A stretch of DNA of 63,861 nucleotides, filler included, from Hausera hauseri (taxonomy: Eukaryota), in NCBI GenBank assembly GCA_046269625.1. It is 11 parts of 11 records of this genome, joined end to end, with 100 filler letters (N's around TTAATTAATTAA, not from the genome) between each part and the next. Parts side by side here need not be neighbours in the genome. Positions count along the whole stretch, not along the records: positions 24,290 to 28,293 come from JBJURY010825861.1; 10 more parts are not named here. One strand, given 5' to 3'. The notes below the pieces were generated by a model. It was not told the DNA's origin, did not search any database, and worked only from the letters and a program-made list of their open reading frames with translations. Both the position numbers and the translations under genes were made by a program. Below, in pieces: positions 1,396 to 57,920 of the stretch. Each line of letters starts with the position of its first letter. Position 1 is the stretch's first letter.

Positions 1396-1679
1396 TCGGG
1401 GAAGTGAATTTGGAAATAATGAAAAATATAGCTATGTCAACGTGCACTATCTAATTTTGATAATTGATGCAGTAAAACAAAACACATGTAAGGAAATAAT
1501 TTTAATGGCGGGGTAACTTTGGCACTACATATTGTTGCCAATATGTTGTGTTGTCAACATCATGCGTTTGTTTTAATGCATCAAATGCATGAACTTGTCA
1601 CGTAATTATGCCATCGTATTGCTTGTCAACATAATGCGTTTGTTTTAATGAATCAAATGATTTAAATATGTGGCGGCAC

Positions 1680-17589: not shown

Positions 17590-19164
17590 GACTTTTTACG
17601 TCGTCAAGTACCATTGGTTGATTTTTGAATAAGAAGAGTAATTGAGCCGTTTACGGAATCATATAGCGCTTTGGACATAACGGTACAACGATTTCTCTGT
17701 CTTCTTGACACAAATATTTCATCTTCACTATCTGAGTCAACTTCGGAACATTTTGTGAGCCAATTAGTGAATTTCATAAATGGCATAGTTAAGCCACCAA
17801 GGAATATAATTGTGAACAGAACTATGATTAAAGTAGTTGTAACTAAAACTTGCCGGGTTTCTTGTGATACGCCCTCTAAGTGAAGAGCCAAAGCAAATGC
17901 AATTGCACCTGGAAGTCCACTGAACCACATTACAAATTGATTCTTTCTAGTAATTTTTATTTCTCAAAAATAATTCAAAATAAATGAAAATTGTAAAAAT
18001 ATTAAAAGCACGACCGATCAAACACAACACTATGACCCAGGCAATTAAGGCAGGTTCTGGTCGATGTTTGAAACTAAATATCGCAAGTCCAAGATATGCA
18101 AATGCAATCGATTCAGCCATGAAGGCTAACGTTCGAAATATTTGTAGAACAGTCATCTGAGTAATTGGAAATAAATTCCTGAGTATAATGTGACATAACG
18201 ATACCAGAAAAAAGAATGGCCATGATTCCAGATAGACCAATAGCCTCCGCCAAACAATATGGAGCGTAACAAAATACTAGCATAATTCCAACTTCAAGAG
18301 ATGGAGTCTTTCTGAGGTCCAACAATTTTAGTCCCAAAGATGAGAGAAGAGCAAAAGTTATTCCTATGGCTGGTGATGCTAAGAATGTGACAAGAAATCC
18401 TCCTATAGCCTGCCCAAGCAACTTCAAGGCTGACTCATCTTTCAGTTTAGGCCTATCCAAATTCATAACTGTTGTAGTTAGAACTATGGACACAGCATTA
18501 TTGAGAATGGATTCTCCAAAAACAAGCATGTATAAAATAGGATCAACATCCATTGCCCTAAATATTGCCAAAGTAGCAACCGGATCAACATCAGAAATCA
18601 ACGATCCAAATCCGAAACTTTCAAAAATACTCAAACAATAAGCCAAATTGGCAATTCCACACAAGTAAAGTCCACCGCCAATGACAACGGCTGATATGAC
18701 AGTTCCGATAATGACAAAAACCAGAATAGATCCAATATTTTGGAAAAATTCCCTTTATGCAAATTATATCCGGATTCAAAAATAATTGGAGGTAGAAAAA
18801 CGAGAAAAAATACCATTGGCTGAAATTCTTTTCCCTGTCGCCAATTTCTAATTAATTTCAATATTAATCCGACTAGAGCGCCGATAAATACAATTGCAAC
18901 ATTTTCCGGTAAATATTGAAGTTTCATTGTTATCAAGGCATGAATAATTAAAATACAGACACCAACGATAACCAATATAAAAAATAATGTCAAACTTAAA
19001 TGGTGTTCTTTTTGAGCTGGTGTCAAATGAGAAATAGCCGTTGTAAGTACACTACGTACTGTGGAACTAGTTGATGATAAATTTAAATTACTGGCGTTTG
19101 ATATCATTACCAATTTATGACTCTTGTCGATTAAAAATTTTTTCAACGGAAAAAACTTTAACAC
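17590..19164 (-). pseudogene. SLC9A8: Intronless sodium/hydrogen exchanger 8 (NHE8) pseudogene
   Basis: FFLVFLPPIIFESGYNLHKGNF, FGSLISDVDPVATLAIF, LVFGESILNNAVSIVL, GLSGIMAILFSGIVMSHY and MWFSGLPGAIAFALALHL are collinear with NHE8. Three frameshifts, an in-frame TGA near 17968, and no introns across ~1.5 kb. Confidence 0.92.
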
Positions 19165-21099
19165 GCATTTTACATAACCTAGAATCTTAAATAAATTTTG
19201 ATATATTCAAACATACGCATCCGTTGCTTATTCGGTCCGTCTTTGGGTAACTTGAGCATACTTAACAAGTCGGCTATCAAGTAGCATAGTGGATCAAAAT
19301 TTTATTGAAGAAATAAATTTTTACTATAAAATTGATATTTTTGCAGATTATCAAATATTCGCAGATATTGTGTTGATAATAGTCATAATTTTTTTCAATT
19401 TCCTTTGTATATTTATAATACTTGAATCTGTCGATGAATTTATTAAATTTGACCTTATATGTTTATTCACACTTCGCCCGTCGTTTAAAATGCGAATTTG
19501 ATTAGAATTTATGGTGTTCACCTAACTTTAACCATACTCCTAAACATAACCTAACATAATGCGCAAAAATTACATGTTGTAAGGTGAANNNNNNNNNNNN
19601 NNNNNNNNNNNNNNNNNNNNNNNNNNNNNNNNTTAATTAATTAANNNNNNNNNNNNNNNNNNNNNNNNNNNNNNNNNNNNNNNNNNNNGCTCTACCTATA
19701 TCTTCTTCATTTTGGGCAATAATTGACTTATATTTGCATAGTAGTTCGTAAAATTGACAATATGCGTCTGGTGAAAACTTTGTTTCCACATGAGGCGAAA
19801 ATTTAGCATATTCATATGGTTTTTCTTCAACTGTTATTGCCGATACTTTATAAGTATGACCTAATGTAGTATTAACATAAGCCTTACGGGTGTTGGTGCG
19901 TTATTTACTAATCTGACTGGTACTCTTCCAGACGTTACTCTTGTCAAAATGTTACTAAGTATAATATTTGGATTAACGTCTTCATGTGGCTCAAAATATA
20001 CTGGTTGGTCGTCCTCTTCGCTGATTTAAGCATAAAATAGCATTTCCGTTCTGGGCGGAATATTTTTGTCAACAGGGATCCATACTTTTCCTTGCTTCCT
20101 TTCTTTCATTGTTTTAATCTCTTTTTCTGGTCCAAGTTCAAGTAATTTTCAAGTATGTAAATTTATTGCGATATTGGGTAATTGTTTCAATATATCACAT
20201 CCTAATACTACGTCATTGGTAAGTTGATCCATTATAGCAAACGCATGTTTAAGGATTTGACCCATTAACTGAACTAAGGGACTCAATTTAAATTTTGGTT
20301 TGGATTTTTGCCCAAAAGCTCCTATGCTGCCTGGGTCTAACAATGATGCAGGCTGCAGTGGTTTCCGTAATTCCGGCGGTATTGATTCTAATTTGGTAAA
20401 CGATTTTTCTAATCCAATGTCAATTAAGGCATAAACTTCCCAATCTTCAATGGTGACTTTTGTGAAGGGTCTTCCTTCCATAACTGACCCGTAACAACTC
20501 GACATGTCTTTTGGTCTTTTAATCGAAGAAATCTTATGTCCGTTTATTGTTATCTGTGGTGATGAAATATTATTTTCAATCAGCTGTTTCAGTTCTTCGT
20601 TAGGGTATAAGTCGTTAACTGCCATGTTATTCGTATTGTTCCTAATTAATGGTTCTTGTACTATTGGATTTTGGAACGATTTCACTCCTTTTGTTTCTCA
20701 GACTGTTGATCTGGTCTCTATATTACGAGCTATTCTCGGTGAGTACAATATCCCATGGTCATCTACTGCTCGTCTTTGATTAGTGATCTGCATTTTCTTT
20801 AATACTCCATATTGTTTTGTTCCTTCATATGGATCTTCATAGCTGAAAGGTTTCCGACAGAATGATAATCTACAGGACATCATAGATGTTTTGTCACAGT
20901 CCTCGTATATCGGAGCCGTTGGTGGCACGATAGATAAGGGTGCTCTAATTATTGAATACATTTTATGTCTATTTTGCCCGAGGACTACTTCTCCTCCTTT
21001 AGGCTCGTCATCATCGGAATCACTTCTTCATGTTGTTGATTTCTTAGCTTTTCGTTTTAGTAGAAATGCGCGTCTTGCTCGTCGTTTATAATTATGGTA

Positions 21100-22880
21100 G
21101 CCGACATGGCGTTCAACGTCATTCTTCCATCGATTTTCTTCGTATGCTTTAAGCATTTTACCAAATGGGGTGATAATTTCAATTAAAATCTTGCAGGAAA
21201 ATCCTGTTAGCGTGAATATTTCGTACCCATTTATAACCGCTTAGATTATTACTTTTACTAATTGTACCAAGAAATAGATTGCTAAAAATCCAGATGAGGC
21301 TTGCCCAAAGATTAAAAATCTTCCGTATATTTTGTAGAGTATTTCTATGGTTACCCGTTGGTAATTGTTCGCACCAAGCAGGGATTCCCATTTAGCCTGG
21401 TAGCGGACATCATCTACTACTGATGCCATAGTTTGGTTTAATTCGTGTGTACGTTGCCGTAGAAAGCGAGAAATTGTCGAAAAGCTTCTCTCTCTGGGCT
21501 TGTAAATACCCTTTTAAGATGTGTCCTGAAATTTGTCATCAGTAATTCCCCTCGCTAAATTAGTTCCAGTTAGTCTCTTGGGGATGAAAATGACACCTCC
21601 ATTAGGTAAGCTAACCCAATCTGTTTCGCTGCGCCTAAACTTTGGTTCACTCAAACGTGCCTTACAATCCTTTAATATTGTAGGTTGTGTTGCGTTGTCT
21701 AGCAACACTGTAGTGAGGGGCATGGATAATCGCGAAGTGTTCTGATAGATCACAGGAAACTCTTGCATACACCGTTTTTCTTCGACATTAATTGGTACGT
21801 CTCTTTTCTCGCACTCGTAAGTCAGTAGGTCCTCGCCAGTAACTTGCCCGAAGATTCCTCCTCTCATGAGAATGATCGGTGAAGCTAACTCAGGGTTTGC
21901 ATAAATAAGGGTTAATTTTGTCCTCATAATTTCCGTATCTAATTTGAAGTCATTAGTTATCATTTTGTGATATAGTTCGGCTATCCCGACTTTTCCTTTA
22001 TAATAAAAATAATAGTCTCGATTTTTCAGATAATCTTTAATACTAATATCTTGCGTTTCCAAGTTGTATGTCGTCGCGTTTATCTTTGTTTCTGCGACGA
22101 AGAAGGCTTCGTAATTAGTGGTGAACATTACTACTTCGCAGAGTGAAATCATTTCCTTTTTTATGAATTGCAATCCACGTTGATCAGATATTAATATCGT
22201 AGGTGCATGGAGCTCTGATACATCTTCACGTGCTGTTAACTGATGTCGGATTTATCTACATATCGTTTTCTGGTAGTTTCTTTAAATGTCATTTCCTTAA
22301 TCTTAAAAAAATTACAGCCTTTTCCGGTGAGCGGTTCCCATGTGACGACAGAACTTCTGAAAGCACAGGTTCCGTCCTGTATGTGACATTTTTGGTTTTC
22401 GGTATACAGCTTAGTAACGCTATGGAAAATTACTTTCTGTACTCGAATTTCCGCTTCGTAAAAGTCCACTACTACTACGTTTGCTCCTAATCCTTTTCCG
22501 GTGTTGTATTCCGCTCCACTACAGTGGCCGTTGTGCATATCTAGCCTTCCGACTACTATTTTGTACGCTCTGATTATCTTTCCGGGCTGAATTTTTAGTT
22601 CCATACTATCCCGTTTCAATCTTCCGATTTCTATGGCCTGCTTGCAGTGTTGTCTTCCTAAATTCATTTGAATGGGAGGAATTGTTGGTTTAATTATTGA
22701 GGAGTGCCCGTGCATTAGTCCACAATGGAAAATGCTACGAGATCGTCTCAGTATACATTCCATGCCATTCAAAGATATCAAATCTTGTTGATGACATAGG
22801 AAATAACTCTTCGTCTTTGTCTCCAGTTTGTGTGGTCTGGCATCTTCACATGCTTCTAAATCCATTAATGAGTATTTTTG
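21100..22880 (-). pseudogene. Chuvirus-type (class III, gB-like) glycoprotein, copy B; signal peptide and N-terminus deleted
   Basis: FHCGLMHGHSSI, GHCSGAEY, QDGTC, ELYHKMI, GQVTGEDLLTYEC, CMQEFPV and the TM GQASSGFLAIYFLVQLVKVII match the chuvirus/Jingchuvirales G motif pattern. Confidence 0.85.
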
Positions 22881-23401
22881 TCTACAATAATAAAAAAGTA
22901 CAATAATACTTTTCTCAGCTCTTCTATCGTATTCGCCATTATGATCTTCTTGACTATTGCGTCCTCAGTTAGGCTACTTTTTGACAGTTTGGACGGAGAA
23001 TTTCTACCTGCTTTAAATATCGCCTTTTCTTTATCATCTAATGTATCTTAGCGAAGACTTGAATTATTTACAACACGTATTAGATTCTTCATTAGCTCGT
23101 GTAACTCTTCATTGTCGGTGCTAAAAGTAGGGATCGACATCTGTCTTAGCTCTCTAATTAATTCTCCGTTATAGTCAACTTCTTCTCGGATCTTCCTAGG
23201 TCTTTCGACCGGGTGTTTAGTCCTTGGGGCTTTGGCTATTATTCCACTTAGTGGATTTAGATCCTTGTTATATTGTTCCTTGTCTTCGTATGTCTGTAAA
23301 TACTCGAAATACATTGCCGCATCTCGTACTCACATGATTTGTCCTACCCACTGTTCCGTTTTAGCCTTCCGCGTGGCTTCTTCTTTTGTTTGTTCATTGG
23401 C

Positions 23402-23620
23402 TAACGTTACTACTATTCGATTTGTTTTGCCGAGGATGATTCCTACGTCTAATAATTGTTCTAAATCGTCAAGTATTCTTCCTCTAAAGGAAAATCTGTA
23501 ATTTAGTTCATTTGTTCAGCCGTTATTTAATAGCCATTCTCTTACGTCCTTCACGTAGGAGTATGTGGTTAGCTCACATTCCGTTTCGTCCATCCACTCA
23601 GATGATATCATTATTTTCAT
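23402..23620 (-). other. Internal ubiquitin-like domain (copy B; one in-frame stop)
   Basis: MKIMISSEWMDETECELTTYSYVKDVREWLLNNG*TNELNYRFSFRGRILDDLEQLLDVGIILGKTNRIVVTL aligns without gaps to ubiquitin residues 1-73. Confidence 0.75.
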
Positions 23621-24289
23621 CGTTACCTCGGGTTTACCCTTCAAGATTTTTGCATAGTTCTTTATTAAAAGTTTCGGCGCTGTGTTGTTAATTATGTTTT
23701 CACTGGATAATTTAGTCAAAGTCGGAATGAGTTGTCTGAGCTTATTTTTAGTTATATTCACATTAATTGATTCTATCAAATCCTTTTCCGTTAACGCTGA
23801 GTCTAGGAGCATCTCCACATTGAATTTCCTGTTCTGCGGATACCTTTCTATTTCATCTAGGTGTACTGGAGTTACCGGATTTTAGGCCGTTATTTTTTCT
23901 AGATAAGCATCCCATTCTAATTCATTCCCAATATCTGGGAGTCCATACTCTACTAGACCTGTGTTCATTCTTTGCACATTTTCTCGAATTTCTTTCAATC
24001 TTGGCTGTATTTCTTTTATCTGCGTAGTTCGGAAACCTATTCCGTTTCCACAGGCATATTGAACCATTTTTAGTAGTTCACCTAATTCATTAGAATTGAT
24101 GAATCCCTTCTGGTGATAATCGGTTAGTTCAACAATTACATCCCTTTGCCATCTTTGTACGAATTCTCGCTTATTTTTGATTTCTGATTNNNNNNNNNNN
24201 NNNNNNNNNNNNNNNNNNNNNNNNNNNNNNNNNTTAATTAATTAANNNNNNNNNNNNNNNNNNNNNNNNNNNNNNNNNNNNNNNNNNNN

Positions 24290-26710
24290 CATCAGTGAAA
24301 GAGGCCTTAAATAGACTCTCAGGAGCAAAATGGTTCACCAGTCTGGACTTATAATCCGGATATTGGCAACTAGAAGTAAAGGACAAAGACCGTTATAAGG
24401 CAGCGTTTAAGACTCACGATGGCGTTTACGAATTTAATATTATGCCGTTTGGTATTATTACCGGACCAGCCATATTTACAAGAATGATGAACAAAATGTT
24501 AATGGGACGGAATCATGCCTCTGCATATTTAGATGATGTGATGATAGCATCGAGAACGGAGGAAGAACACCTAAAGGATATTGAACACACACTGATGAGA
24601 TTGGAACAAGTCGAATTGAAGTTAAATCCGAAGATATGCAAATGGGCTCAAAATGCCGTATCCTACCTTAGCCATATAGTTGGAGAAGGAGGATCGAAAC
24701 CTCATAAATCATTATTGGATAAAATATCAGATTGCATGGAACCACAAAATCAGAAAGAGTTAAGACACTGGTTAGGACTCTGTGGTTATTACGCAAGTTA
24801 TGCACCAGATAATTCAAAGATTAATGCACCTCTATATCGCTTACTTAAAAAAGGAATCAAATTGAAATGGACAGACGTTGAGCAGAGGGCTTTTGAGGAG
24901 ATGAAGAAAATATTAACAAGCGAACCCGTTTTGCGATATCCAGATTCTAGCTTACAGTTTATAATTAAGACAGACGCTAGTAAGGAAGGTATTGGATATG
25001 AATTAGCACAGAAAAGACAGGATGAAGAATTAGAACATCCAATTGCTTATGGAGGACGTTCTTTGAAAAAAGCTGAGAAAAATTATTCTGTTACCAAAGT
25101 AGAACCTCTAGCGGTAAAAGAAGCACTTCGAAATTTTAATGTTTATGTTTACGAGCAGAAAATTATAATCGTCACTGACCACAAGGCCGTTACGACTATA
25201 AAGGGGCAAGCCAATAACCCGACGTGCAGACTAAATAGATGGATTGAAGAAATCTCCAGATACAACATTGAATTCCAGTATAAGTCAGGAAATAAACATG
25301 TAGACGCTGACGCACTATCGAGATTAAAGACTAAGACAAGCACAATCACTGTAATGAAGAAAAGTCAACTTGAGGAAATAATAGACCGCCAACGCGCGTT
25401 AACGATAGATATAGCAATTAAGATTTCAGCAGAACAAAGAAACGATAAAGTTATCCATCAGATTATAGAATTTGCTAAAAAGGATGTCATACCGAAAGGA
25501 CGACAGATAAAGGAACATTTACACAGATATGGACATAAATGTTGCATCATAAACGACGGAAACAAAGAAGACATCCTATATTACGAACGAAAATGAAGAA
25601 AATTGATAGTTATTTCAAAAAGTTTACGAACCGAAGTACTGATGTCAGAACATGATTTATACTTAGCCGGACATATGTCTTGGAAGAAAGAATAGTGAAG
25701 AAAGAATAGTGAACAAATACTTTTGGCCTAGTATCTATATCGATGTAAGAAATTTGGTGAAGGCCTGTGAAGTGTGTGCAACTAAACAGAAAAAGACGAA
25801 AAACTACATGGCTAAATTAAAACCAATCAATGTGCCCGATAGGCCCATGAAAGCTATGTCAATGGATATCGTAGCAGCCCTGCCTACGACCCACAAAATC
25901 AATAAGTATATCTTAACGTGTATTGATCGATTAACTCATTTTGTCGAATTGGTAGCATTGGTTGATCAGAAAGCTGAAACTTTAGCCGAAGCAGTAGTAA
26001 GAAGAATCATTTGTCGTTACGGACCACCTGACCAAATATTAACGGATAGAGGAAGAAATTTTACCAGTGAATTATTCGAGAAAATCACTAAGATATTCGA
26101 AATCGAGAGATTAGCAATTACTGCCTATTATCCTCAATGTAACGGAATGGTCAAACGGATGAATGCTACAGTTATACGTATACTGTGAACAGTAGTGGCT
26201 AAGGATCAAAAGGATTGGGACGAATTTTTAGAAGGAACGCAATTTGCAATTAATACCACGCCACATCCAGCAACAGGATTTACGCCATTTTTTATTATGT
26301 ATGGACGTGAAGCCGTGTTGCCCACGGACTTAGGAATGACGCCATACATAGTTAATTTCAAAGATTTAGAACAGAATTTTGCAGAAGTGTTACAAACACG
26401 ATTGCAAAGGTGTTGGGGAATTGCCAAAAAACTATCTCAAGAATATCAAGAACAATTTAAGAAGCAATATGATAAGAAAGCGAAACAGCATAATATAGAA
26501 CAAGGAAATTGGGTTTATGTACATTATTTGGTAGCCAAAAAGGCACCTCACTAAAATTGACTCGTACGTATAGAGGACCGTACAAAGTTACAAAGGTTAC
26601 GCCAACTACAGTATATATTAACAAAAATGGAAAAGAAGAAGTTATGTCAATACAGAGAGTTGTCAAGACAGAAATACGACCCAGCAAACGTTATAATTTA
26701 CGCCAACGTG
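24290..26710 (+). mobile_element. Ty3/Gypsy pol (RT-RNase H-integrase), degenerate
   Basis: MPFGI, AYLDDV, KTDASKEGIG, TDHKAV, HVDADALSR, HHCC zinc finger, MDIV, LTDRGRNF, QCNGMVKR, GPY motif (YRGPYKV) and terminal RYNLR. Confidence 0.93.
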
Positions 26711-28155
26711 AAGTAAAAACTTCGTCGATAGTTACTAGACCAATATCATACGTTCAGATAGTCTTAGCATTATCGTTGATTGCCTCTTACCTCCCAAGAA
26801 CACAAGCCCAATGGTGGCACGATGAATCGTCGTTAGGAGACATATACGGACTTCGGAAGAGTGGATCAAAACCGGAAACTACCAAGACGGAAAAGGAGCC
26901 AACAGCTGAAGAAGTTTAAAAACGAGAATACACTAAATTACTGCAATCAATGACAATTCATTACTATTCAGCAAACTCCGTATGTGTGGGATTTAAAGCT
27001 TGGAAACTGCACCACGATTTCGGACGATTTCTAATTGTTTTACTTGACACAACCACAAGAGGAACAAAAAATTGCGATTTTGAACCTGGAGAAAATACGC
27101 AGTGTTGCGATATAGACTTCGGACACACTTATAACCTCACATACCGTCTATACTTGCCAGACTCAACTGAAGTTTATGTTGAAGTGAAACCACATTCTCA
27201 ATTAGTCATTCCTGCATGGAACAGACATAAAGGAGTAAAACTGAATGAAATATTACGATCCACTGACCCAGAGATAAGAATACTAGACGAAAATATTCAG
27301 AAAATCTCCGTGAATAAGAATAAACGATGCATTTAAGTAGACGCTAGAACAGGATTAACGTTCAGTCAGGAAATTAGTATCACGTTTGAAGCAACAGTTG
27401 GACCGACGCCAAATATAGAATATTGTTCTATTCGAGCAGGCGTGCAAAACCATGCTGTAAAATACCCGTAAACTGAGAATTCAAAATAAGATTTGACTTA
27501 TATGAAGTACGGCCGAATAAACCGAGTATACAGTTGAGAACTTACTACCCAGAAAATAGAATTTGGGAAATTCCAGTAACGACGACCACCAGAAGACCAG
27601 CTACCCAAATTAGTACCATTACGTCAATCATTGCATCAGCCAGTGTGCCTAAAAGAGAATTAGGAAGTATCCCTATTAAATATTCGGCATATCAGTCTAA
27701 GATCGTGTTCTCCGTGGAAGAAAAACAAAATTACGATATATACATAAATTGTCGGACAACGTATAACGAGCAAGTGGTGACGCTATTTAATGGTACTTAC
27801 CAAACAGAGTGAAAATCTGTTAAAACCAAAAACAAAGTATATAGTACAATTGTGTGCCGAAAACAAACAAAATCAGACTGTTACATTGCAAACTTTAGAC
27901 GAGATTTGTGCAGAATCCCATGTATACGAAGATGTAGATGAGCAAATCACAACTCCGATCATTACACACGCCCCAATGGGATTAACTACACTACCAATTA
28001 TATCCATCTCCATACTGTCAACATTTGTTCTCATTATACTAATTGCGATTTTTCGGATAGTTACCAAAAACTGCTATTCTAAGCGTGCTAAAAACTCAGA
28101 ATGAGAATTAAGGGAACTGGAAACCTCTGTTGATCCGTATGATAATATAACCTGA
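26711..28155 (+). pseudogene. Post-integrase type I membrane protein: signal peptide, two Cys-containing repeats, Thr-rich linker, FN3-like domain, TM, YxxI tail
   Basis: In frame with the integrase C-terminus in ORF 26509-26919. SP IVLALSLIASYLPRTQA; repeats ending NTQCCDIDFGHTYNL and (frameshift-corrected) CCKIPVNxEFKIRFD; FN3 hallmark LKPKTKYIVQLCAEN; TM IISISILSTFVLIILIAIF; tail YDNI. Confidence 0.65.
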
Positions 28156-28720
28156 CAACTACAGAGCGGGTTATTCTATCATCTAACAAATAATTGGTTT
28201 AATTTTAAAACCATCGTTTGTCGTAAGATTAACCCTTACTGTTTATTTTTCAGACTGATGAGTAAAGAAAGAAACATGAAACCGGATACCGGANNNNNNN
28301 NNNNNNNNNNNNNNNNNNNNNNNNNNNNNNNNNNNNNTTAATTAATTAANNNNNNNNNNNNNNNNNNNNNNNNNNNNNNNNNNNNNNNNNNNNAAGATCA
28401 TGCTGATGGACGGAAGAAGAAGTTATTTAATAGCACATTTCCAGAACTGCGAATATGTGCATACGAATGTTGTAAATTGGTGCCTATACCAAAGAACATT
28501 ACATGTATTTATCGTGAACATTGTTCACATTGTGCTTATAAAAAGTGTTTAGCGTTATGTCAAGGTAATATTGTTACTAAGTAAATGTGTGCTATGAAAT
28601 TAGTTGGTCTTAACCTATACAGTAGTTACTTAGTTTGACTTGGCCTTATCCTATATCCCACATTACTTGATCAAGAAAACAATACTATATTTCTATACAA
28701 TATTTATTAACAATAACTAT

Positions 28721-31665
28721 TTACAATGTTACATGTCTGTGAGGTAGTGTATGGATTCCATCGCTCAGGATCTGCCTCTTATCATCCATCCAATCTAAAC
28801 TTTTCTTATGCAGAGGTACTGTTTGGATGTTATGATTTATAGACAGCATCCTTCTCATTTCCGATATGATGTGAGTCTGCTCATACAGAACTCTCGCATA
28901 GTCCTCAAAACGGATCTTCTTGGCCAATGTAGTCCTTTGAACGTCCTTAGCTCTCTTTTTGATCTGACCACATACGTCTAGGGAATACAATTTGGACCTG
29001 AGAGCCACAAGTCTCGGGATGATTGCCTCATTTATCTCGTCTTTGAATTTCCCTATGACTTTCATATTGGCAATTGAATATTTGGGATGCTCCTTCGGAT
29101 AGTCCGATGTATCCATGTGTTCAGCCAATTTGGCAAAGTCCTCATAAATATCCTCAGTATGGATTTGATAGATGAAACTATCAGTATCCATGTACATCAG
29201 CTGTATGGACTTGAATGTGGGGACCATGATGTCGTAGTGGAAATTGTACATTAGGGTCTTTGATAGTTCCAATATTGCCATACCCACATATGTGTTTGTT
29301 GAATACCAATGCTGTTTTCAGCATATGGATTCCTACCAAGTTCTCCGTATATGTTGAGTTCCTGTGAAAATTGGGCTTGGCAATGAGCTTTTTTGCCTGC
29401 TTCCAATCACATACCAGCTCGATGTTGATCCTATTGCGGATATTCTCCATGGCCTTGCCAAAACGCTGTTATATAGTTTTAATTGGTCTTTCTCAAAGTC
29501 GTTCTTGGCATTAGTCCGCAGCTTTGTATTGAGATCTATGTATGACTGCAGCCACATGGACTGGTTGAACTGCAGGGCTCTATGGATCTTAGTAATGTGG
29601 AGTCTATGTCTAACTGCCTGCTGGAGATTGATGTAGTGGACTACATACCTCTCCCTATTACCCAGATGACAGCAGCATTATCTGCTTTCCATAGGACGGA
29701 GGCCTGCTCTCAGGGAGGAAAGGCAGCTGTTGATGCCTTGAGTGGATAGAAGCCGAATATTCCATATCTATCTCCAGTATGTATCCCGTATCTCCAGTGG
29801 GATCCAGGTCCAATACAGGGATGTTTTCAGGATTCTCGACCCATTTGAAGTTATCACATGTCAATGGGGCGCTCATTACCCATCCATAAAGGTTGTTGGC
29901 ATCCAGGTATGATATATATATGAGGATTCCTTGGATGGATCACACTGGGCCATATACTTGTTATTGGCCTCACTATACCGGTGAATGGCCTGGCATATTC
30001 CGCCTATAACGCCTCTCTCGATCATAAGGATCATATCATAATCCTTAATGATCTGCAGCCTAATACCAGTATACCTCAGCATTGCTGCCCAACTCCTTCC
30101 TGGAGCCGTAAAGAAATGAGCTGGATCCAAAGTATAGCATTGCTTACATATTTCTGTTTCCCATGATATTTCGTAATTTTTGATCTGACTAGACGCTTAA
30201 AGTTCTTGATCCAAACATGTTTCTTTTCTCCATCGACTAGTAGGAGCAGATCCCTATGATCTTCCAATTCAGCATCACATCTGCAGGGAATAGAATTTGT
30301 CCTCATCATCCAATCCAATTATGTTAATGGATATATTGTTGATTCCACTGAACTTCTTTACTTCATCTATGGATGGTGAGAACTTAATACATTGGAAGTC
30401 ATAGTTGTGCTTCAGATCATTATATAGCCAAACTCGATCTGCTTAATGTTTTTGATCCCGTACGAGTTTATATAAAATGACATACATGAAACAAATGTTG
30501 TGATTATTATGGACATTGACACATACTTTTTTATTAGAGATCCATTCCGGAAGCTGAATATATGAACTACCCTGCGTGGGAGAGTACTTGTGCACATGCA
30601 CAAGCAATCTCTTGATGGTTTCCAGAGTCCATCCATTCTTCTTATCCTGACTCTCCTCAGCTTCACGGATCAGCTTTACGTGCTCTTTATGCAGTCATGC
30701 TACTATATTGGCCTTTTCCAGTATGGACTTATTTTCGGTCCTGAAGGCACTATTGGATTCTTTGGCATCTACACTGATGTATGTGGCCTCCAATTTCATA
30801 TAAACCTTTAGGGCCTTGAGCTTAGCTATGTTGTCCTGGAGAATTCCCTGCGTTTCTTCCTTTGTATATTCCAGGAACTCCTTGATGATTGTTTGGTCAG
30901 TTGCATTAGTAACATATCTGCGGCATTTTCTCTTTAATGCTGGCGCATCAACTGGCTGCTCTCTTTGACTTTTTGTTGCAGCCGCTGCGCGTGATGGGCT
31001 TGATACGCCTTATGGGTCTGATGCGCATGATGTAGCTGCGCGTTTCAATTCTCTAAAAAGTTTCTCAGCTGCTGCACCAGATCGTGCAGCCTAATGCGAG
31101 GCAGAATAGTGCGAAGCAGATGCATCAATATTATGTTGCTCATTATAGATGGCCTCCTTGGACTTTGATGCGAAGTGACTCAAATGATGTTTGAGATTAT
31201 AATAGTACTGTATGTCATCTGCACCTCGTACAGTTTCGCATCCCGGACATATATGATATTGAATATTTTTGGATTTGTATCCATAATGCCGCTGCATCGT
31301 TTCATGACTCTGTTACGGCTTATGTGCATTGGATTTGCAATAAGCATAGGAACCGCACATCTGATTTGCTTTTAGGACAATTATTGTCATTGGCATATTA
31401 TTGTTGAATATTTCTTTCTTCGATCTTGTGAACGAATCCAAATGCTGTTTATGTTGGTTGTAAAATTTCTCGTAACCGGTCCGGCACGCTACCTCACATA
31501 CATGACATACATAGTATTGAATCTTATTGTGCTGGTATAAAAAATAATTCTGCATCACACTGTGGCAATTCTGTTTCTCGTGTTCCTGCGCCATACGAAA
31601 TTGGTAGAAGTTGCAAATCTAAACAAATCAATTATTTGAGGAGCAGAAATAACGAAACTCACCAT
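28721..31665 (-). pseudogene. Maverick/Polinton pPolB gene with N-terminal Cys/His modules and a large internal deletion
   Basis: Motif A YLDANNLYGW (~29880-29910), motif B KLYNSV, motif C YMDTDS, then IGKFKDE, ALRSKLY and DDKRQIL. ATG at 31663-31665 followed by a 44-nt intron; AATAAA just after the stop (~28703). Confidence 0.92.
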
Positions 31666-32619
31666 TCTTTGAAGTGCATTGGGAAATAATGAAATATGTA
31701 GCAATGTCAACGTGCACCGACTCGTTTATGGATTTTTTCGAACATTCTAGAACACTTTGTTTTAACGCATCATTTACATAAACTTGTTTACATTGTGCAC
31801 TTGACTTGTCAATGTTGTGCATAGATGTACCAAAATTTGTTTCAATGCATCAAATGCATAAATTTCTCAGCGCCAAATTTAAAATTTCATCAAGGTTTTC
31901 ATATATGGGATATCTATTGAGCTCGTCAGGTTCTTTGAACAACGTACACTTTATCGATTTTTTGAGTTCGGATCGATAATTATTCAATTTCGATTAAGGT
32001 ACTCGAATATCTAATACCAGATTCAGATTCACCATATGTTGTTTCCTATATACATGCACTATTAGATTTGTTGATTTCAGTCTGCTTCACCTCCAATTTC
32101 TCTGTCAAATGTGCAATCGAAATAAGCACCATTTAATTACTTGGTATTTTTATGTACTTTTTACTTGTAATTAAACCTTGTTTTACTACACCGCGGTACG
32201 TTGCACCACGCCGATATTGATTGCCCTATAAATTTGCCCGAATGTAGTATTTATTAAATCTATCAGATTCTCCAAATAATGCATGTCTGACCGAGTTTTC
32301 GAGTTCTAATAGATAAATATTCGACTTGGAAGCTAGAATTCGAATATCTAACGCCATATTCCGATTGACCATGTATACCTTCCTATCCAGACCCGCTATT
32401 AGATTTATTGATTTCTGCTTCACTGGGCTTCAAATGAACATTTTGCTTAATTCGAAATATTGATTTTGTATCTGCATAGCATATTTCCATGGAATAGTTT
32501 TTATGCATTGGAGGGGGGGNNNNNNNNNNNNNNNNNNNNNNNNNNNNNNNNNNNNNNNNNNNNTTAATTAATTAANNNNNNNNNNNNNNNNNNNNNNNNN
32601 NNNNNNNNNNNNNNNNNNN

Positions 32620-33673
32620 TTTTCGTCATTGGAACCAGGTTTCTTTTTTAGTGGAATGGTTAGTCTTAAGGTTTTTGCTCTACCTATGTCGTCTTCATTT
32701 TGGGCGATGATTGACTTATATTTGCATAGTAATTAGTAAAGTTGACAATATGCTTCTGGAGAAAAATTTGTTTCTACATGAAGCGGAAATTCAGCATATT
32801 TGTATGGTTTTTCTTCTATTGTTATTGCCGATACTTTATAAGTATGACTCAAGGTAGTATTGGCGTACAACTTTACGGGGGTTGGTGCATTATTTACTAA
32901 TCTGATTGGTACTCTTCCTGCCGTTACTCTTATCAAAATGTTACTAAGTATGATATTTGGATTAACGTGCTCTTGTGGCTCAAAATATACCGGCTGGTCA
33001 TCCTCTTCGCGGACTTAAGCATAAATTAGCATTTCGGTTCTAGGCGGAATATTTTCATCGACCAGAATCCATACTTCTTCTTGCTTTCTTTCTTTCATTA
33101 TTTTAATCCTTTCACTGGTCCAAGTTCAAGTAGTTTCTCAGTCTGTAAATTTATTGCGATATTGGGTAATTGCTTCAGTATATCGCAACCTAACTCTACA
33201 TCATCAGTTAACTAATTCATTATGGCAAACTCGTGTCGAAGGATTTGACCGATTAATTGAACTAGAGAACTCCATTTAAACTTTGGTTTGGATTCTTTCC
33301 CAAAAGCTCCTATGCTGCCTGGATCCGACGATGATGCTGGCTGTAGTTGTTTTCGTAGTGTCGGTGGTATTGATTCTAATTTTATAAATGATTTCTCTGA
33401 TGCTGTGTCGATTAAGGCATAGACTTCCTAATCTTCAATGGTAACTTTTGTGAAAGGTCTTCCTTCCATAACTGACCCATAACAACTAGACACGTCTTTT
33501 GGTCGTTTAATCGAAGAAATCTTATATGCGTTTATCGTTATCTCTGGTGATGAAATAATATTTTCGGTCAGCTGTTTCAGTTCTTCGTTAGGGTATAAGT
33601 CGTTAACTGCCATGAAATTCGTATTGTTTCTAATTAATGGTTCTTGTACTATTGGATTTTGGAACGATTTCAC
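32620..33673 (-). pseudogene. Aspartic protease and pre-RT region of pol (copy A)
   Basis: RPFTKVTIEDxEVYALIDTAS, then VxLGCDILKQLPNIAINL, RVPIRLVNN and KYKSIIAQNEDDIG. Confidence 0.85.
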
Positions 33674-33949
33674 TCCTTGTTTCCCCCGACTGTCGATCTT
33701 GTTTCTATATTGCGAGCTATTCTCGGTGAGTACAATATCCCGTGGTCGTTCGTCGCTCGTCGTTGATTAGTGATTTGCATTTTCTTTAATACTCCATATT
33801 GTTTTGTTCCTTCATAAGGATCCTCATAGCTGAAAGGTTTCTGACAGAATGCCGATCTATGATACCATAGATGTTTTGTCACAATCTTCGTATATCGGAG
33901 CCGTTGATGGCATAATGGGTAAGGGTGCTCTAATTACTGAATACATTCT

Positions 33950-35955
33950 GCCTATTTTGCCCGAGGATTGCTTCTCCTCCATTAAGCTCGTCATCGTCTG
34001 AATTATTTCTTCGCGTCATTGGTTTCTTAACCTTGCGTTTCAGTCGAAATATGGGTCTTGCTCGACGTTTGTAATTATAGTAGCCGACATGGCGTTCAAC
34101 GTCATTTTTCCATTTATTTTCTTCTCATGCTTTAAGCATTTTGCCAAACGGTGTGATAATTGCGGTTAAGATCTTACAAGAAAATCCTGTTAGCGTAAAT
34201 ATTTCATACCCATTTATAACCGCTTGAATTACCGCCTTTACTAGTTGTACCATGAAATAGATTGCTAAGAATCCAGATGCAGCTTGTCCAAAAATTAAAA
34301 ATCTTCCTCATATTTTGTAGAGTATTTTTGTGGTTACCCGCTGGTAATGGTTCGCACCAAGCAAGGATTCTCATTTAGCCTGATATCGGGTGTCTTCTAC
34401 TATTGATGCCATAGCTCGGTTTAATTCGTGTGTTCGTTGTCGTGGAAAAGCGAAAAATTGTCGAAAAGCTTCGATCTCTTTTGGTCTGTAAATGCCCTTT
34501 TGAGATATATCCTGGAACTTGTCGTCGATAATTCCTTTTGCTAAATTAGTTCCAGTTAGTTTTTTAGGTATAATAGTGACACCTCCATTGGGTAAGATAA
34601 CCCAATCCGTTTCTCTACGCCTAAACATTGATTCAGCCAAACTTGCCTTACAATTTTTTAAAATGGTTGCTTGTGTCGCATTATCGAGCAGCACTCTAGT
34701 GAGAGGCATGGCTAGACGTGGAGTATTCCGGTAGATCACAGGAAGCTCTTGTATGCATTGTTTTTCTTCGACATTAATAGGTACGTCTCTTTTCTCGCAC
34801 TCGTATGTCAGTAGAACTTCACCAGTAACCCGACCAAAAATTCCTTCTCTCATGGGAATGATCGGTGAGGCTAACTCCTGATTCGCATAAATAAGAGCTA
34901 ATTTTGTCCTCATAATTTCCGTATCTAATTTGCAGTCATTAGTTATCATTTTATGGTATAGTTCAGCTATTCCGACTTGTCCTTTATAATAAAAATAATC
35001 GTCTCGGTTTTTCAGATAGTCTTCGATTCGAATGTCTTGCGTTTCTAAATTGTACGTTTTTGCGTTTATCTCCGTTTCTGCTACGAAGAACGCTTCGTAG
35101 TTAGTGGTGAACATTACTACTCCGTAACGTGAAATCATTTCCTTTTTATGAATTTCAATCCATGTTGATCAGAGATTAATATCGCAGGTGTATGATGTTC
35201 TGATACGTCTTCACGTGCTCTTGAACTGATGTCGGATTTATGTACGTATCGTTTCCCGGTAGTTTCATTGAATTTCAGTTCTTTAATCTTAATAAAATTA
35301 CAGGCTTTTCCCGTGGGCGGTTCCCATATGGCGACAGAACTTCTGAAGGCACAAGTTCCGTCTTGTATGTGACATTTTTGATTCTCAGTATATAGCTTAA
35401 TGACACTGTGGAACATTACTTTTTGGATTCGCATCTCTGATTCGTAAAAGTCTACTACTACTACGTTTGCTTCCAGTCCTTTTCCGGTATGGTATTCCGT
35501 TCCACTACAGTGCCCGTTATGCATATCTAGCCTTCCGGCTACTATCTTATACGCTCTGATTATCTTTCCGGGTTGCATTTCTAATTCCATTCTATCCCAT
35601 TTCAGTCTTCCGGTTTCTCGGGCTTGCTTACAATGTTGTCTTTCCAAATTCATTGGAATTGGAGGGGTTGTTGGTTTGATTATTGAAGAATGTCCGTGCA
35701 TCAGTCCACAATGGAAGATGCTACGAGATCTTCTCAGCATACATTCCATACCATCCAAAGATATCAACTCTTATTGTTGGTATAGAAAATAGCTCTTCTC
35801 TTTTGTTTCCAGTTTATGTGGTCTGATATCTTCACATGCTTCTAAGTCCATTAATGAATATTTTTGTCCAAGTTTGAATCTACCACAATCGTAAACAGTA
35901 ACCGCACCAATCTGTTTTATTAGCGTCATTATGGTGAGTAAGCTGACTAACCAAT
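33950..35955 (-). pseudogene. Chuvirus-type (class III, gB-like) glycoprotein, copy A, with internal signal peptide
   Basis: WLVSLLTIMTLIKQIGA|VTVYDCG..SLMDLEAC, FHCGLMHGHSSI, GHCSGTEY, LYHKMITNDCKL, GRVTGEVLLTYEC, CIQELPV, KGIYRPKEIEAFRQFFAFPRQR, TM, then INGYEIFTLTGFS. The order and spacing of these motifs match chuvirus G and Pao-captured chuvirus env. Confidence 0.88.
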
Positions 35956-38900
35956 TTGATTCGTTCTTCCGGTTGTTATTATCCGTTGTCGTCAGGTTCC
36001 GTATGACGTCTTCGAGTCTATTGTTATTTCTCTTATCTTCCTTGTCAAACAATTTTGGCCAATTTACTTCACACCGAAGTTCCCTAGATGCTTTTCGCGC
36101 CAAACTCGTAACTTGATTTAGTTCATTTTCTCGATTTGGATGTCTTGATTGCTAAGTACAATAATATCTTTCTTAGCTCTTCTACCGTATTCTCGACCAT
36201 AATCTTCTCAACTATTGCGTCGTCAGTTAGGCTACTTTTTGACAGTTTGAAGCGCGAGCTCCTCATCGTTCTAGCTGCGTTAAATATCGCCTTTTCTTTA
36301 TCATCCAAAGTATATCCGCGGAGACTCGAATAATTTACGATACGTATTAAAATTTTCATTAACTCGTTTAATTCTTCATTATCTGTACTAAAAGTAGGAA
36401 TCGACATCTGTCTTAACTCTCTAATCAGTTCTCCATTATAGTCGATTTCTCGGGGCTTCCTAGGCCTGCCAATTGGGCATTTTGGTCTTGGAGCATTGGC
36501 TGGCATTCCACTTAGCGGTACTAGATTCTTGTCGTATTGTTCTTTGTTTTCATCCGTTTGTAAATACTTGAAATACATTGCCGCATCTCGTACTCCCATA
36601 ATTGGTCCTACGCATTGTTCCGTTTTAGCTTTACGCGTAGCTTATTTCGTCTGTTCATTAGTTATTGTTACTACTATTCGATTTGTTTCGCCGGGGATGA
36701 TTCCGACGTCTTAACTGTTCTAAATCATCGAGTATTCTTCCTCTAAAGTAGAATCTGTAATTTATCTCGTTTTTTTGGCATTATTTAATAACCATTCTCT
36801 TATGTCCTTTACGTAGGAATAAGTAGTTAGCTCACATTCCTTTTCTTCCATCCAGTCAGATGATATCATTATTTTCATCGTCACCTCAGGTTTATCCTTC
36901 AAGATTTTTGCATACTTCTTTATTAAAAGTTTTGGCACCGTGCTGTAAATTGTGTTTTCACTGGACAATTTGGTTAGAGTCGGAATAAGTTGTTTGAGCT
37001 TACTTTCAGTCATATACACGTTAATTAATTCCATCAAGTCCTTCTCAGTTAACGCTGAATCTAAGAGCATCTCTACATTGAATTTCCTATTCTGCGGATA
37101 CATTTGTATTTCCCCTAGGCGTACTGGAGTTACCGGATTTTCGGCCGTTATTTCTTCTAAATAAGCATCCCATTCTGGTTCGTTCCCCATATCTGGAAGT
37201 CCATAGTCTACTAAAGCTGTGTTCGTCCTTTGCACATTTTCTCGAATTTCGCAATTTTGGTTGTATTTCTTTCATCTGTGTAGTTCGGCATCCTATTCCG
37301 TTTTCACAGGCATATTGAATCATTTTCAGTAATTCGCCTAATTCATTAGAATCGATGAATCCCTTTGGTGATAATCAGTTAGTTCAATAATTACATCTCT
37401 GCCATCTTTGCACAAATTCTCGTTCATTTTTGATCTCTGACTCATAAAAGCATTTGTTCAGATAAACTTCAAGCTCTTTTGTTAGTTCATCCAACCTTGT
37501 TGCTCTTTGTTTTGTTTTAATACATGTTTCTACTTTCTGTATCTTGGGCATCAATTGTCTCATCCTCTCATCACTAATCTCCGCCATTTCTATCAATACG
37601 TAGGCTTACTCGTACATCTCATTTATAGTTTTTGAGTCAGAGTCCATTGCATCCGACAATTTCTTCACGATCTTGTGTTCCTGAAAGCTAAAATGTGGGT
37701 CATCTTTTATTTTTGTCAACCTAGTATGAAAATTCTGATCTGATCCGGCCATCCATTCTTGTGGTTTATGCAAGAATTTTATTGCGTCCGTTAACATGGT
37801 TCGATGTTCCGGACAGATATCTAAGATTTCAATATCTTGGGAAGAGATCTTATCGATTGGTTTTTCCGTTAAGTATTGGATTCCTTCTAGTCGAGCAACC
37901 TTCAACTTTGAGTTTACATCGTAAATCATGTTCCGTTTTTCCGTGAAGCTCGTCTCTTCGATCAAGTTATAGATCTCCTCCAATATCGACGTTTCTTGTT
38001 CTCTTCATAAATTTTAGTCGTCGTAATGCTTCGAATTGAGTGCGGATGTCTATTTCTATTCGTATTGTGCCTATATCATGTGCACTTTCTGCTAGCTGCT
38101 TCTTTACCATTGGCTCGCTTTGCGGAAATTCTTTTTTACGGTCTTCTACTAGTTTACTTAATCTTGTTATTAGTTCGGACTATTCTGACAATTGATTAGC
38201 GATTATTGGTTTCGCCATTATAGCCTTATCTAACATCTTATATGCATCTTTTAACCATCGTACGGCCCTCTTAGGAAATTCATAATTCGACCGACATAAC
38301 TAAACTCGTTTTTATATTCGTCAAATTCTATAATACAAGCCTTTATTATATATTTAGTTTCTTTATTATTTATAAACATAATTCGATTTCTTAAACTGTT
38401 GAGCTGTGACCTTTTTTCATTTTTCATTTTGATGCGGCTCTCTAAGTCCGCACATCGTCGGTTTTCGACAAAGGCAATTTTTATCATCTCCATTAAAGGA
38501 GGAATATCTATCAGATCTACACCCAATATCTCTAAATCGATACTACTTCGATCGCTAACCGGTTTTTCCCTAAGCCGATTAATCATTGCACAGCGAATTT
38601 CATCCTTTATACGTTCTAAATTACGGGCTACTCTCTTCAGTTTTGGGTTTGCTTCTAAGGTAGACAGTAGCGTTTGAGCCTTAGTAACTTTCACATCAAT
38701 ACTATCTTTGTTTTTACTCCATCCTGAAAATTCTACTCCGCTTTTAATCCACGACTCTAATTCGTGGTTCCATTTTATCAACGTATCTCGTGGCACCTCT
38801 TCCGGTTGTCTTATTGCAATTGCTTCATCGAGTTTCCCTTCACTCCACAATCTTAAACTTTTGTATAATTTCTCCGCAAATTATTGTTCCTTACCAGATA

Positions 38901-39477
38901 TATCTGTTTGTTTACTAATCTGCTTGAGCCTTTCTAAATTGTGTCTGAGTATCTCTGGATTGTGACATTTAACTCTCATCCTCTTTAATTCGTCAGCATT
39001 TTTCCGTGAACGTCGAACTTTCCATTTTCTCGCATCAGGATCATTATTATTGTCCGTTTCTTCCTCATTGGCGGGAAGCGGACAAACTTCGTCTTTCGTC
39101 ATTAACATTTATCATCTCGGGTGTCTCCAACACTTCTGGAATCCCTATAGGCGTAATAGAAATCTCAGGGCAAGTCATCTCTTAGGATAGCAGTGTGGAA
39201 ATCTCTTTTCTTCTGTATCCCTTTTAATGGGAGATCGTGAACGAGTCTTAGATTTTCTCTTAGGCGATGGGCTTCTACCTCTATTCTTCATTATCTTGAG
39301 AACTAATGGTCCGATAAATTCACTTTCGACTTCATCCATTATTTCGTCTGGATTATGCGTTTCGGCTTCTATTTCTGCATCTAATTCTATATTTTGAGAT
39401 GTTGATGGTTTCTCCGACTGAGCTATTCCTTGCGGAACAGACTTTTTACGTGCCATATTAGTATTATTTGGAGCCAA
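35956..39477 (-). pseudogene. ~1100-aa accessory region of unknown function (RS-rich N-terminus, charged helical repeats, UBL domain at ~36660-36878)
   Basis: The ORFs starting at 39477, 39108, 38850, 37983, 37596 and 37323 all share one frame with the Gag knuckle (39771). The 3' half is conserved in copy B. Confidence 0.7.
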
Positions 39478-39648
39478 TGCCCATTCTTTTTCAGTCTGGT
39501 TTTCTTAATCCATGATAAACTTCCGTTAATCGTAATTTCTTTCATATTCTTTTCTAGCGTTCATGACTTGGGGATTAGTAGTTTCACTTAGATTTCTTAC
39601 CGATCTGCGTAAATCTTGCATTTCAATAATCAGGCTTATATCTCCTCA

Positions 39649-40955
39649 TTTACCATAGATGGCTTCTAAGTTATTTTTGATCATACTTGTTTTGTTCGGT
39701 TCGGTAAATGTGACACTTCTAGGATTTGGACATGACCTAGCGATGTGTCCTTCTTTTCCACATGTAAAGCATATTAAATTCCCATTCCGGCCGATCCTTT
39801 GTCGACCATCTTCATTTACAGGCGATTTCGCTCTGTTTGTATTCTTATTCTAGCTCTGTAGCATTTATTTATTCTCTCCGTCATATCTATTATCCTTATA
39901 TTTATTATTAGGTCAGTAACCACCTTGGTTCCTATCTGAATTGTAACTCGATTTACTATACGAATTATTTCGATTATTACTAAAATTTCTGTCGTTTCTT
40001 TGATTTCTATTTTGGACATTTCTATTATCGAAACCTCGATTTCGGTTATTATCATTAAATCGTCTGTTATCTTGATTATTATTTCTATTTCGATTATTGC
40101 GGTCATTATTCCTTTCATATTTGTCGCCTTGATGTGCTTATCTCTAATGCCATTTTTAAGTCTTGGGCTAATTGTAACGTCTTTTCAAAATTATCGGGTC
40201 TAGCCAGAATTAACTGCTTAACTAAATCTCTTGACCATATGCCATTTATTAACTGAGTTGATATCATGACGCCTAAGTCTAGCGGTGTTGCCTTTTCTGC
40301 AGCATCACGTTCTGCGTCTGTCTTAGCTTTTACTACGTTAGCTATTCTCAAGATACTTATAACTATTAGCAAGTTGCTTTAATGCAAATGCAAACTGGGT
40401 AACCGATTCACCCTTTTGTTGCACCCTATTCTGTAATGCCATAAGTTTCTGTTGTGGCGTTACTGTCGGCAATAATTTACGGTTTAATGCTCCTACCAGG
40501 GAGGACCAAGATTTCTTTTCGTCATTAGTGAGCTCGCTATAAGCATAAGCGGTTAAATTTTTCGAATACAACGGCAAACGTTTAATCATCACTTCAGGAG
40601 TAAGACTAGTACCTTCTGCGTGCAAGTTATAAGTTCTCAAGATTTTATTTAACCCGTCCGGATCACCATCGTATGCCGGCAGGTTCAGAGAGTCAAAGAT
40701 AAAGATGTCCAGTTTTTGCGCCACTGGTAGGTTATCTGCAACCATATTAGTCTCAAAATTTACTTTATTAGCTCTAGGTTCCGCAAGAGGGATTTTAAAC
40801 TTATTGGTTTGCTCAACAGCGGTTAAATCTGTATTAACTGAATTTACTCTAGTGTCAGATAGTGAGCGTTTATCTAACTTTTTACTATCTCTATATATAT
40901 TTCTACGCATCTGGCGTATAGGCGAGTTTTCTGTGGCGTTTGAATCAAGGTTCAC
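39649..40955 (-). pseudogene. gag: Gypsy Gag with N/R-rich linker and CCHC zinc knuckle
   Basis: LPAYDGDPD, W..L..AL, RVQQKGESVTQFAFALKQL; knuckle CFTCGKEGHIARSC at 39730-39771. Confidence 0.88.
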
Positions 40956-41127
40956 TTTTAACCTATCAATATTTGTTCTCGAAAGAATTTTACTTTAAAC
41001 CATGTTCAACTTATAACCCGAAATTTAAAACTTTCAAACTATATTCAAATACTTGATGTGGGGCGTTGATCGCCGGTATGTCGTTAATTAGCTTTAAGCT
41101 GAAGTAAGTCTAGCGAGGCACTGATCT

Positions 41128-41145
41128 GTACTGCTAGGGTCGCCA
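41128..41145 (-). promoter_or_regulatory. Primer-binding site, probably tRNA-Arg
   Basis: TGGCGACCCTAGCAG lies 2 nt after the LTR-terminal CA; TGGCGACC is typical of Arg-primed Gypsy elements. Confidence 0.75.
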
Positions 41146-41147
41146 AA

Positions 41148-41648
41148 TGTTATATATTGGGGTGGCCCTTATACAACCCCCACTATATAACAATAATTAC
41201 ACTTGAGATTTGAGTACCTTAATGCAGGTAAGGTCTACCGTTATCGAATAGACAAATTGTGCCTTATAACAATTAGTTTAATCAGTAATGCTGGTACTCG
41301 CTTGCGGTCCTGTGCAAAGTGGTTAATAAGATTCTCCTCTTAACTATGTAATTTTACAGTGGAATTTTAGACCTTAGTGTAGTCAAATCACCCTTAAGGG
41401 GCAAAGAAAAACTATAGAAGAATTTTAGAATAACAATATATTTTTACAATAACAACAATTACGTCTTCTTGGATACGTCTCTGTTATCGGAATTGAATAT
41501 CAAATCAACTGGTTCAAGGATCTGTTTTCGCAAACAAAAATAATTCTCCACACTTTAGAAATGTTCTGGAACGCTTCTCCAAATGCTTTTCAAATAATTT
41601 TCGAAACTCTCAAAAACTTCGAATCAACTTCAAATAACTCACAAAACT
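41148..41648 (-). repeat. 5' LTR (partial) of the env-bearing Gypsy element
   Basis: Ends in ...TATAACA adjacent to the PBS, is non-coding, and runs to the contig end. Confidence 0.7.
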
Positions 41649-46594: not shown

Positions 46595-46666
46595 ACTTAA
46601 TGTAAAGTCGACAGGATATGGGAACGATATGTTTCCCACCTAGACTGAAAGTGAGGGAAAAAACCC

Positions 46667-57700: not shown

Positions 57701-57920
57701 CAGTTCAATAAGAAGGCACGATCACATACAAAATTGGAGATTACATAATTGTTCATTATCCCGCTGCAAAGAAAGGAAAATCGTTGAAATTAACACGTAC
57801 TGGACAAGGACCGTACAAAGTTGTTGATATGCGCCCACAGACACTTTATCTAGAAAGGACCAAACAAATACGAAGCGGTTTCTGTTCAGAGTCACTCGAG
57901 CTCCTGCATCATATAACCTC
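54740..57920 (+). mobile_element. Ty3/Gypsy pol (PR end-RT-RH-IN), heavily degenerate
   Basis: IFAKDETDIG, SPWPSPIV, MPFGLKTAP, PYIDDIL, KTDAS, TDHKAL, HHCC, LTDRA, QCNGMVERMN and GPYKV. Confidence 0.92.

Follow-up and report, generated by a model that had tools for sequence, protein, structure and literature searches.

An old Ty3/Gypsy lineage of Hausera hauseri with an apparently undescribed gene for a membrane protein at the env position

Genes for cell entry occupy the env position in other Gypsy elements (PMC13524379; PMC4402516). In the errantivirus survey of Chary and Hayashi, which used env baits with confirmation by HHpred, all env genes were classed as F or gB, and the terms 'fibronectin' and 'immunoglobulin' have 0 occurrences in the main text (PMC13524379). 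A survey baited in this way could have passed over an ORF unrelated to its baits. Errantiviruses share with the locus described here a Gypsy pol followed by an ORF with a signal peptide, an ectodomain and a transmembrane (TM) anchor, but their env is of the F type or the HSV/gB type (PMC13524379); the present ORF matches neither. Bdelloid Vesta elements are likewise Gypsy-like and carry a membrane ORF3 of unknown origin, and Vesta and other extra ORFs indicate that LTR elements do capture non-viral genes (PMC5408684). A membrane glycoprotein likewise takes the env position in the LTR element Tor of Oikopleura, but this Tor Env is described as furin-cleaved, with a putative fusion tripeptide and a transcript of its own (PMC4402516). 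Beyond retroelements, FN3 receptors such as neogenin and the class I and II cytokine receptors resemble the ORF in their type I topology, tandem beta domains of ~90 residues and an FN3-like signature, which is found in domain 3 of one of the two copies described below. The gene that we describe codes for a membrane protein, is real and element-borne, and occupies the env position in an old Gypsy lineage. It is apparently undescribed: no earlier description of such an ORF was found in the open-access literature, and an unremarked Repbase entry may exist.

The window, the whole stretch of DNA that was analysed (63,861 nucleotides of Hausera hauseri, assembly GCA_046269625.1), comprises 11 AT-rich contigs. 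Between them stand artificial spacers of 100 nt, each a constant 12-mer flanked by Ns (e.g. 24190-24289), so that contigs adjoining across a spacer are not true neighbours. Its content is animal repeat DNA, probably of an arthropod, with Gypsy elements, gB-type env genes and Polinton-like pieces. The two contigs of interest, A (24290-28293) and B (54740-59681), both start inside pol. Elsewhere in the window, two copies of an element that encodes a glycoprotein of the gB/chuvirus type (PF24664) are located at 19689-24189 and 32620-41648 (minus strand), with 84-86% DNA identity over ~4.5 kb; their order is gag-like, several unknown ORFs, env and protease-like, so that env precedes pol. An intronless, frameshifted Na+/H+ exchanger sequence (17604-19206, minus strand; PF00999, 2e-32) shares its contig with a Gypsy gag-pol and lies upstream of it by a few kb; it is either a retrocopy or a capture. 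Three contigs (1-5630, 28394-32519 and 59782-63861) share 68-81% DNA identity, one of them with a DNA_pol_B_2 match (E 2e-4), and we take them to be likely Polinton-like elements. A 250-codon frame at 4092-4844 (minus strand), hydrophobic in several segments, gave no significant match in Pfam, and 54006-54638 (plus strand) is presumably a mariner-like transposase fragment.

The Ty3/Gypsy pol order of RT, RNase H and integrase with a GPY/F tail is present on both contigs and is followed in each by a membrane ORF, which bears out the arrangement claimed by a sequence-only reading of the window. In copy A, whose contig begins within RT, the end of RT and RNase H occupy 24355-25593 (plus strand; Pfam RVT_1 1e-19, RT_RNaseH 4e-29), and the integrase, with zinc finger, core and C-terminal GPY region, occupies 25667-26700 (plus strand; rve 2.5e-14, Integrase_H2C2 7e-8, and translations), with interruptions at 26186 (a stop) and near 26535 (a frame switch). 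The pol of copy B (RT, RNase H and integrase with GPY tail; 55773-57864, plus strand) is decayed and was recognized by tblastn to A and by its place in the tree; its identity to A is 40% and 43% (tblastn). The GPY motif is found in both copies (at 26575 in A); the RYNL integrase end attributed to both is present in A and replaced by a variant in B. In a 16-row tree of RT-RNase H, from which 4 of 16 fetched proteins with a short or missing RT match were omitted, A and B are sisters with support of 100/99 and end branches of 1.01 and 0.84. Since the tree is sparsely sampled and contains no named reference clades, the clade of A and B cannot be named. A search with the A integrase matched 16 of 1801 candidates, the best identity over a long stretch being 43%, and none of these matched relatives has a TM-bearing tail behind the integrase. 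A further Gypsy element in the window (46655-52357, plus strand) has both gag and a pol of 1596 codons unbroken, the pol being Asn-rich in a long insert ahead of RT and in a tail behind integrase; its nearest neighbour in the tree is a pseudoscorpion protein, P0004 (100/99).

The ORF behind integrase has the same layout in both copies: a signal-like segment, two four-Cys domains, a third beta domain, a single TM helix and a short tail, with a beta-rich ectodomain of ~400 residues and 3-4 sequons. In copy A, the predicted internal signal peptide (26737-26808, plus strand; translation, hydropathy 1.7, cleavage site placed by eye) is in frame with the integrase tail and has no start codon of its own. 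Domain 1 (26941-27213, plus strand) is intact, with Cys codons at 26983, 27073, 27103 and 27106, and is predicted to be a seven-strand beta-sandwich. Domain 2 (27262-27570, plus strand; Cys at 27328, 27424, 27453 and 27456) is supported by translation, A-B alignment and the Cys pattern, and contains two stops and one frame switch. It is followed by a Ser/Thr-rich linker visible in translation (27571-27650, plus strand), across which the alignment of other copies breaks off, and by domain 3 with the FN3-like signature (27648-27903, plus strand; one break near 27810). The TM helix (27997-28053) and short tail complete the ORF (27997-28155, plus strand; hydropathy), with an in-frame stop at 28102, a YxxI motif at 28138 and the final stop at 28153. 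The damage to the A ORF amounts to in-frame stops at 26917, 27334, 27474 and 28102 and frame switches near 27440 and 27810.

Copy B carries the homologous ORF at 57930-59404 (plus strand), traced from signal-like segment to tail by translation, alignment, hydropathy and Cys pattern, and it too is without a start codon just ahead of the signal segment. Its plus-strand features are domain 1 (Cys at 58080, 58161 and 58189/92), an intact domain 2 (Cys at 58414, 58510 and 58540/43) with the linker next to it, domain 3 (~58826-59087) and the TM helix (59186-59242; hydropathy), with YxxI in the tail at 59285. Four frame switches interrupt it (near 58170, 58735, 58956 and 59110). The proposed signal peptide and TM helix were thus recovered in both copies, as a hydrophobic signal-like segment at ~26737-26808 in A and ~57930-57986 in B, and as one TM segment per ORF with Kyte-Doolittle values of 2.9 at 27997 in A and 2.8 at 59186 in B. 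Two other claims stood in part. Fusion of the ORF to the integrase is seen directly only in A, in which one stop-free frame (26494-26916) holds both GPY and the signal segment, and in B a frame switch comes between them; the YxxI motif is present in both tails, in mid-tail in B, but in A it sits 12 codons beyond the in-frame stop at 28102.

The ORFs were compared with X at each break, both copies being broken, and the protein-level reading is that of these two copies. They align significantly, with a Smith-Waterman score of 77, where shuffled sequences average 37-39 (0 of 500 shuffles as high; z 6.5-7); the ectodomain alone gives z 7.0 and BLOSUM45 z 9.8. The aligned part comprises the end of domain 1, the linker and domain 2, identity is about 20%, and the matching stretches of A and B quoted earlier do align. 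When stop-to-stop pieces were searched by tblastn, no A-B match past the integrase tail was significant (best E 0.008). Each ORF contains exactly two instances of the Cys pattern C-x(26-31)-C-x(~9)-CC, 4 in total where the rest of the window would predict 0.16, and 0 of 2000 shuffles gave as many, a P value that is optimistic, as the pattern was defined after being seen. The repeat of two homologous domains shows better in these Cys than in pairwise alignment. Among 15 domain pairs, the only clear one is A domain 2 with B domain 2 (z 9.2), and the other five pairings among domains 1 and 2 give z 1.1-2.7. The alignment of domain 3 between A and B is not significant (z -0.7). Homologous ORFs in sister pols only 40-43% identical agree with the proposal that the gene was kept across a long divergence.

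The fold of the domains was approached through profiles, sequence searches and models. The FN3 signature L-x-P-x-T-x-Y ascribed to domain 3 is exact in A, while B lacks the proline. A domain 3 scores 12.8 bits against Pfam fn3 (cut-off 25; E 0.14; the third of 3 rows), and its single PDB sequence match is the neogenin chain 1x5g (E 0.78); for B domain 3, Pfam and the PDB sequence search gave no FN3 match. Domain 3 may thus be FN3-like, an assignment for which these scores provide weak support. The AlphaFold model of A domain 1, made from a two-row alignment, has seven strands in a beta-sandwich (pLDDT 63, pTM 0.54), and it supports a predicted beta-sandwich for this domain. Its Atlas neighbours with a family label all belong to the FN3 clan (FN3/Ig_J 0.82-0.83, all below 0.9), no more than a lead. 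With this model, Foldseek matched nothing in PDB or BFVD at E <= 0.001, and FN3 entries appeared in PDB only at ranks 15 and 50 (TM 0.51, E 0.2-0.4). In VIA the best Z was 6.9 (rmsd 2.8, 78 aligned), Z 5 was reached by 78 of 48,161 chains and Z 8 by none; the best 50 matches, which include no named FN3 domain, are tied among carbohydrate-binding, GOLD, SID-1, capsid and nucleoplasmin-type/jelly-roll-type sandwiches. The structure searches with the domain 1 model did not confirm the FN3 or Ig fold that the sequence-only reading had expected, and FN3 identity of the ORF domains is a lead. DesR rows in Foldseek were dropped as an FN3 match, VIA placing the match at residues 471-550, which we take to be a PA14 insert, and antibody rows from the PDB sequence search were rejected, resting as they do on a YYC motif out of register. 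PDB sequence searches with other ORF pieces gave noise or no match. For B domain 2, the single-sequence model has a pLDDT of 35 and Atlas gave nothing usable.

Known envelope types and relatives of the ORF were sought in several ways. Of the F-type hallmarks, the furin site (R-x-K/R-R) is absent, and each ORF has only two hydrophobic peaks, without a third as a fusion-peptide candidate; F or gypsy env Pfam profiles matched no ORF piece (E <= 0.1; second scan E <= 10). The gB/chuvirus-type profile PF24664 matched neither ORF but matches 4 ORFs on two other contigs at 1e-11 to 1e-24, and blastp of the ORFs against the gB-type genes of the window gave a best E of 0.29. For the phlebovirus-type class II env, the comparison was by profile, and Pfam gave no match on ORF pieces. 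The claim that the ORF is unlike known fusogens holds for the F and gB types by furin motif, hydropathy, Pfam and blastp; for the phlebovirus type the result is a blank profile scan. Among longer proteins, the A domain 1 piece found relatives in 0 of 81 candidates and the B piece in 0 of 185, and the widest search, with the B piece (188 residues) against 1.84 billion representatives, gave 0 at E <= 0.001. Scans of viral contigs and metagenome loci found no relative of the ORF; their sole motif match (L001, which is absent from the tree) was rejected as a Gypsy pol whose integrase tail lacks the signal segment. No host homolog or donor gene for the ORF was found. A PADLOC scan was also blank.

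What such a gene might do can be outlined as follows. It belongs to a multi-copy Ty3/Gypsy lineage, stands right behind integrase and would encode a predicted single-pass glycoprotein with three beta-rich domains. As there is no start codon ahead of the signal segment, the protein would be made as a C-terminal extension of Pol, the alternative being a spliced RNA. The internal signal segment would bring the ectodomain into the ER and then be cleaved. Two disulfides would form in domain 1 and two in domain 2, each from four Cys, and the tyrosine motif of the tail may sort the protein to endocytic sites or sites of budding. Displayed on particles or by the producing cell, the protein would bind a surface molecule of neighbouring cells (e.g. 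germline cells) and aid uptake, with fusion coming from a downstream gene, from gB-type elements of the same assembly or from host uptake routes. The non-fusogenic part of this reading rests on the lack of a furin motif, an internal hydrophobic peak and any F/gB hallmark. We found no established precedent for an attachment protein without a fusogen in Gypsy elements. That the product is a Pol-linked, non-fusogenic surface protein for attachment, with fusion supplied elsewhere, we consider an evenly balanced proposition, and attachment as the job of the gene could equally go either way. The fuller proposal, a third class of Ty3/Gypsy env-position gene that is non-fusogenic, built of tandem disulfide-bonded beta-sandwiches, derived from a host receptor, made with Pol and kept while the pols diverged to 40% identity, is advanced tentatively and falls somewhat short of an even chance; capture from a host receptor is plausible, judging by the architecture.

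The main rival to attachment is a decoy or interference receptor that would mimic a host cytokine or virus receptor and either damp antiviral signalling or block competing elements. The ORF combines two Cys-bearing domains in tandem with an FN3-like domain next to the membrane and a short tail, an architecture similar to that of truncated cytokine receptors and viral decoys. Domain 1 has FN3-clan clusters as its neighbours in Atlas (scores under 0.9), and the B tail carries S-x-Y-x-x-I. However, this context of the tail motif is missing in A, and the WSxWS motif, which defines class I cytokine receptors, is absent from both translations. The ORF differs further from FN3 receptors in that its scores are all sub-threshold, FN3 is not the assigned fold of domain 1 and the searches yielded no donor, and no cytokine receptor is among the PDB sequence or structure matches listed. 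An A-B identity of about 20% would also be low for mimicry of one conserved host ligand site. On this evidence a decoy function appears unlikely, at perhaps half the weight that we give to attachment.

The gene might also encode one subunit of a two-gene entry machine, with the downstream ORF as the fusion protein, or an unrecognized class of fusogen. Behind the B ORF, a further open frame of 129 codons (59295-59681, plus strand) with hydrophobic stretches runs off the contig end; its 93 open codons past the stop have a chance of ~0.001. It has no Pfam or PDB match and may be an additional gene of the element. Copy A is likewise open for 46 codons up to the contig end, and in the placements of contig pieces described below, coverage persists into the last bin of contig A and 107 records of run X1 overrun the ends of the stretch. 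Against this reading, the downstream frames of A and B fail to align (score 22, reached by 1362 of 2000 shuffles), and the ectodomain is made of repeated small domains with 3-4 sequons and neither furin site nor internal hydrophobic peak. No named eukaryotic viral fusogen is among the best 50 BFVD matches of domain 1. We regard this explanation as improbable.

Whichever function applies, the surface-protein gene very probably belongs to the Gypsy element. Contig pieces of family A were collected from two public runs at 80% likeness, X1 being possibly the window's own source and hence non-independent and X2 being coded as another organism; depth was not taken as copy number. On contig A, 14,024 pieces (X1) and 1,087 pieces (X2) were placed, and 30 of 30 bins were covered in both runs, the ORF included. 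Most pieces are less than 95% alike, which indicates many diverged copies of family A. One X2 record (record 14; 26538-26771) spans the passage from integrase tail to signal segment with 42 differences in 234 letters and 0 gaps, and another (record 15; 26699-26959) extends on to the start of domain 1. Linkage of the ORF to integrase in other copies was seen in family A only. Other copies show length differences near three frame switches of A, so those breaks are not common to all copies. The A-rich skew of the plus strand runs on from pol into the ORF (0.19 vs 0.20-0.24 in A; 0.13 vs 0.11-0.13 in B). An LTR between integrase and ORF would have meant flanking host DNA, and no LTR-like repeat lies there; none was found anywhere in contig A or B, which end 140 and 280 nt past the ORF. 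With family A multi-copy and a diverged copy bridging the integrase/signal junction, the ORF is read as element DNA rather than flanking host DNA. The notion of flanking or transduced host DNA, or of chance motifs in decayed sequence, to which the broken state of both copies, the fragmented assembly and the lack of a database relative for the pieces searched lend something, is largely refuted and very improbable, given an architecture and a junction common to two pols that are 60% diverged, domains not separated by intron-like gaps, the bridged junction, and A-B homology and a Cys pattern above shuffles.

If the attachment or decoy readings are true, the locus would represent a retroelement that splits attachment from fusion, or an LTR element that encodes a receptor decoy. 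Surveys baited with env would then miss a class of genes, the largest open survey of env-bearing Gypsy elements, as far as its text goes, knowing F and gB only (PMC13524379). The finding would also widen the view of how retroelements pass between cells or manipulate host signalling.
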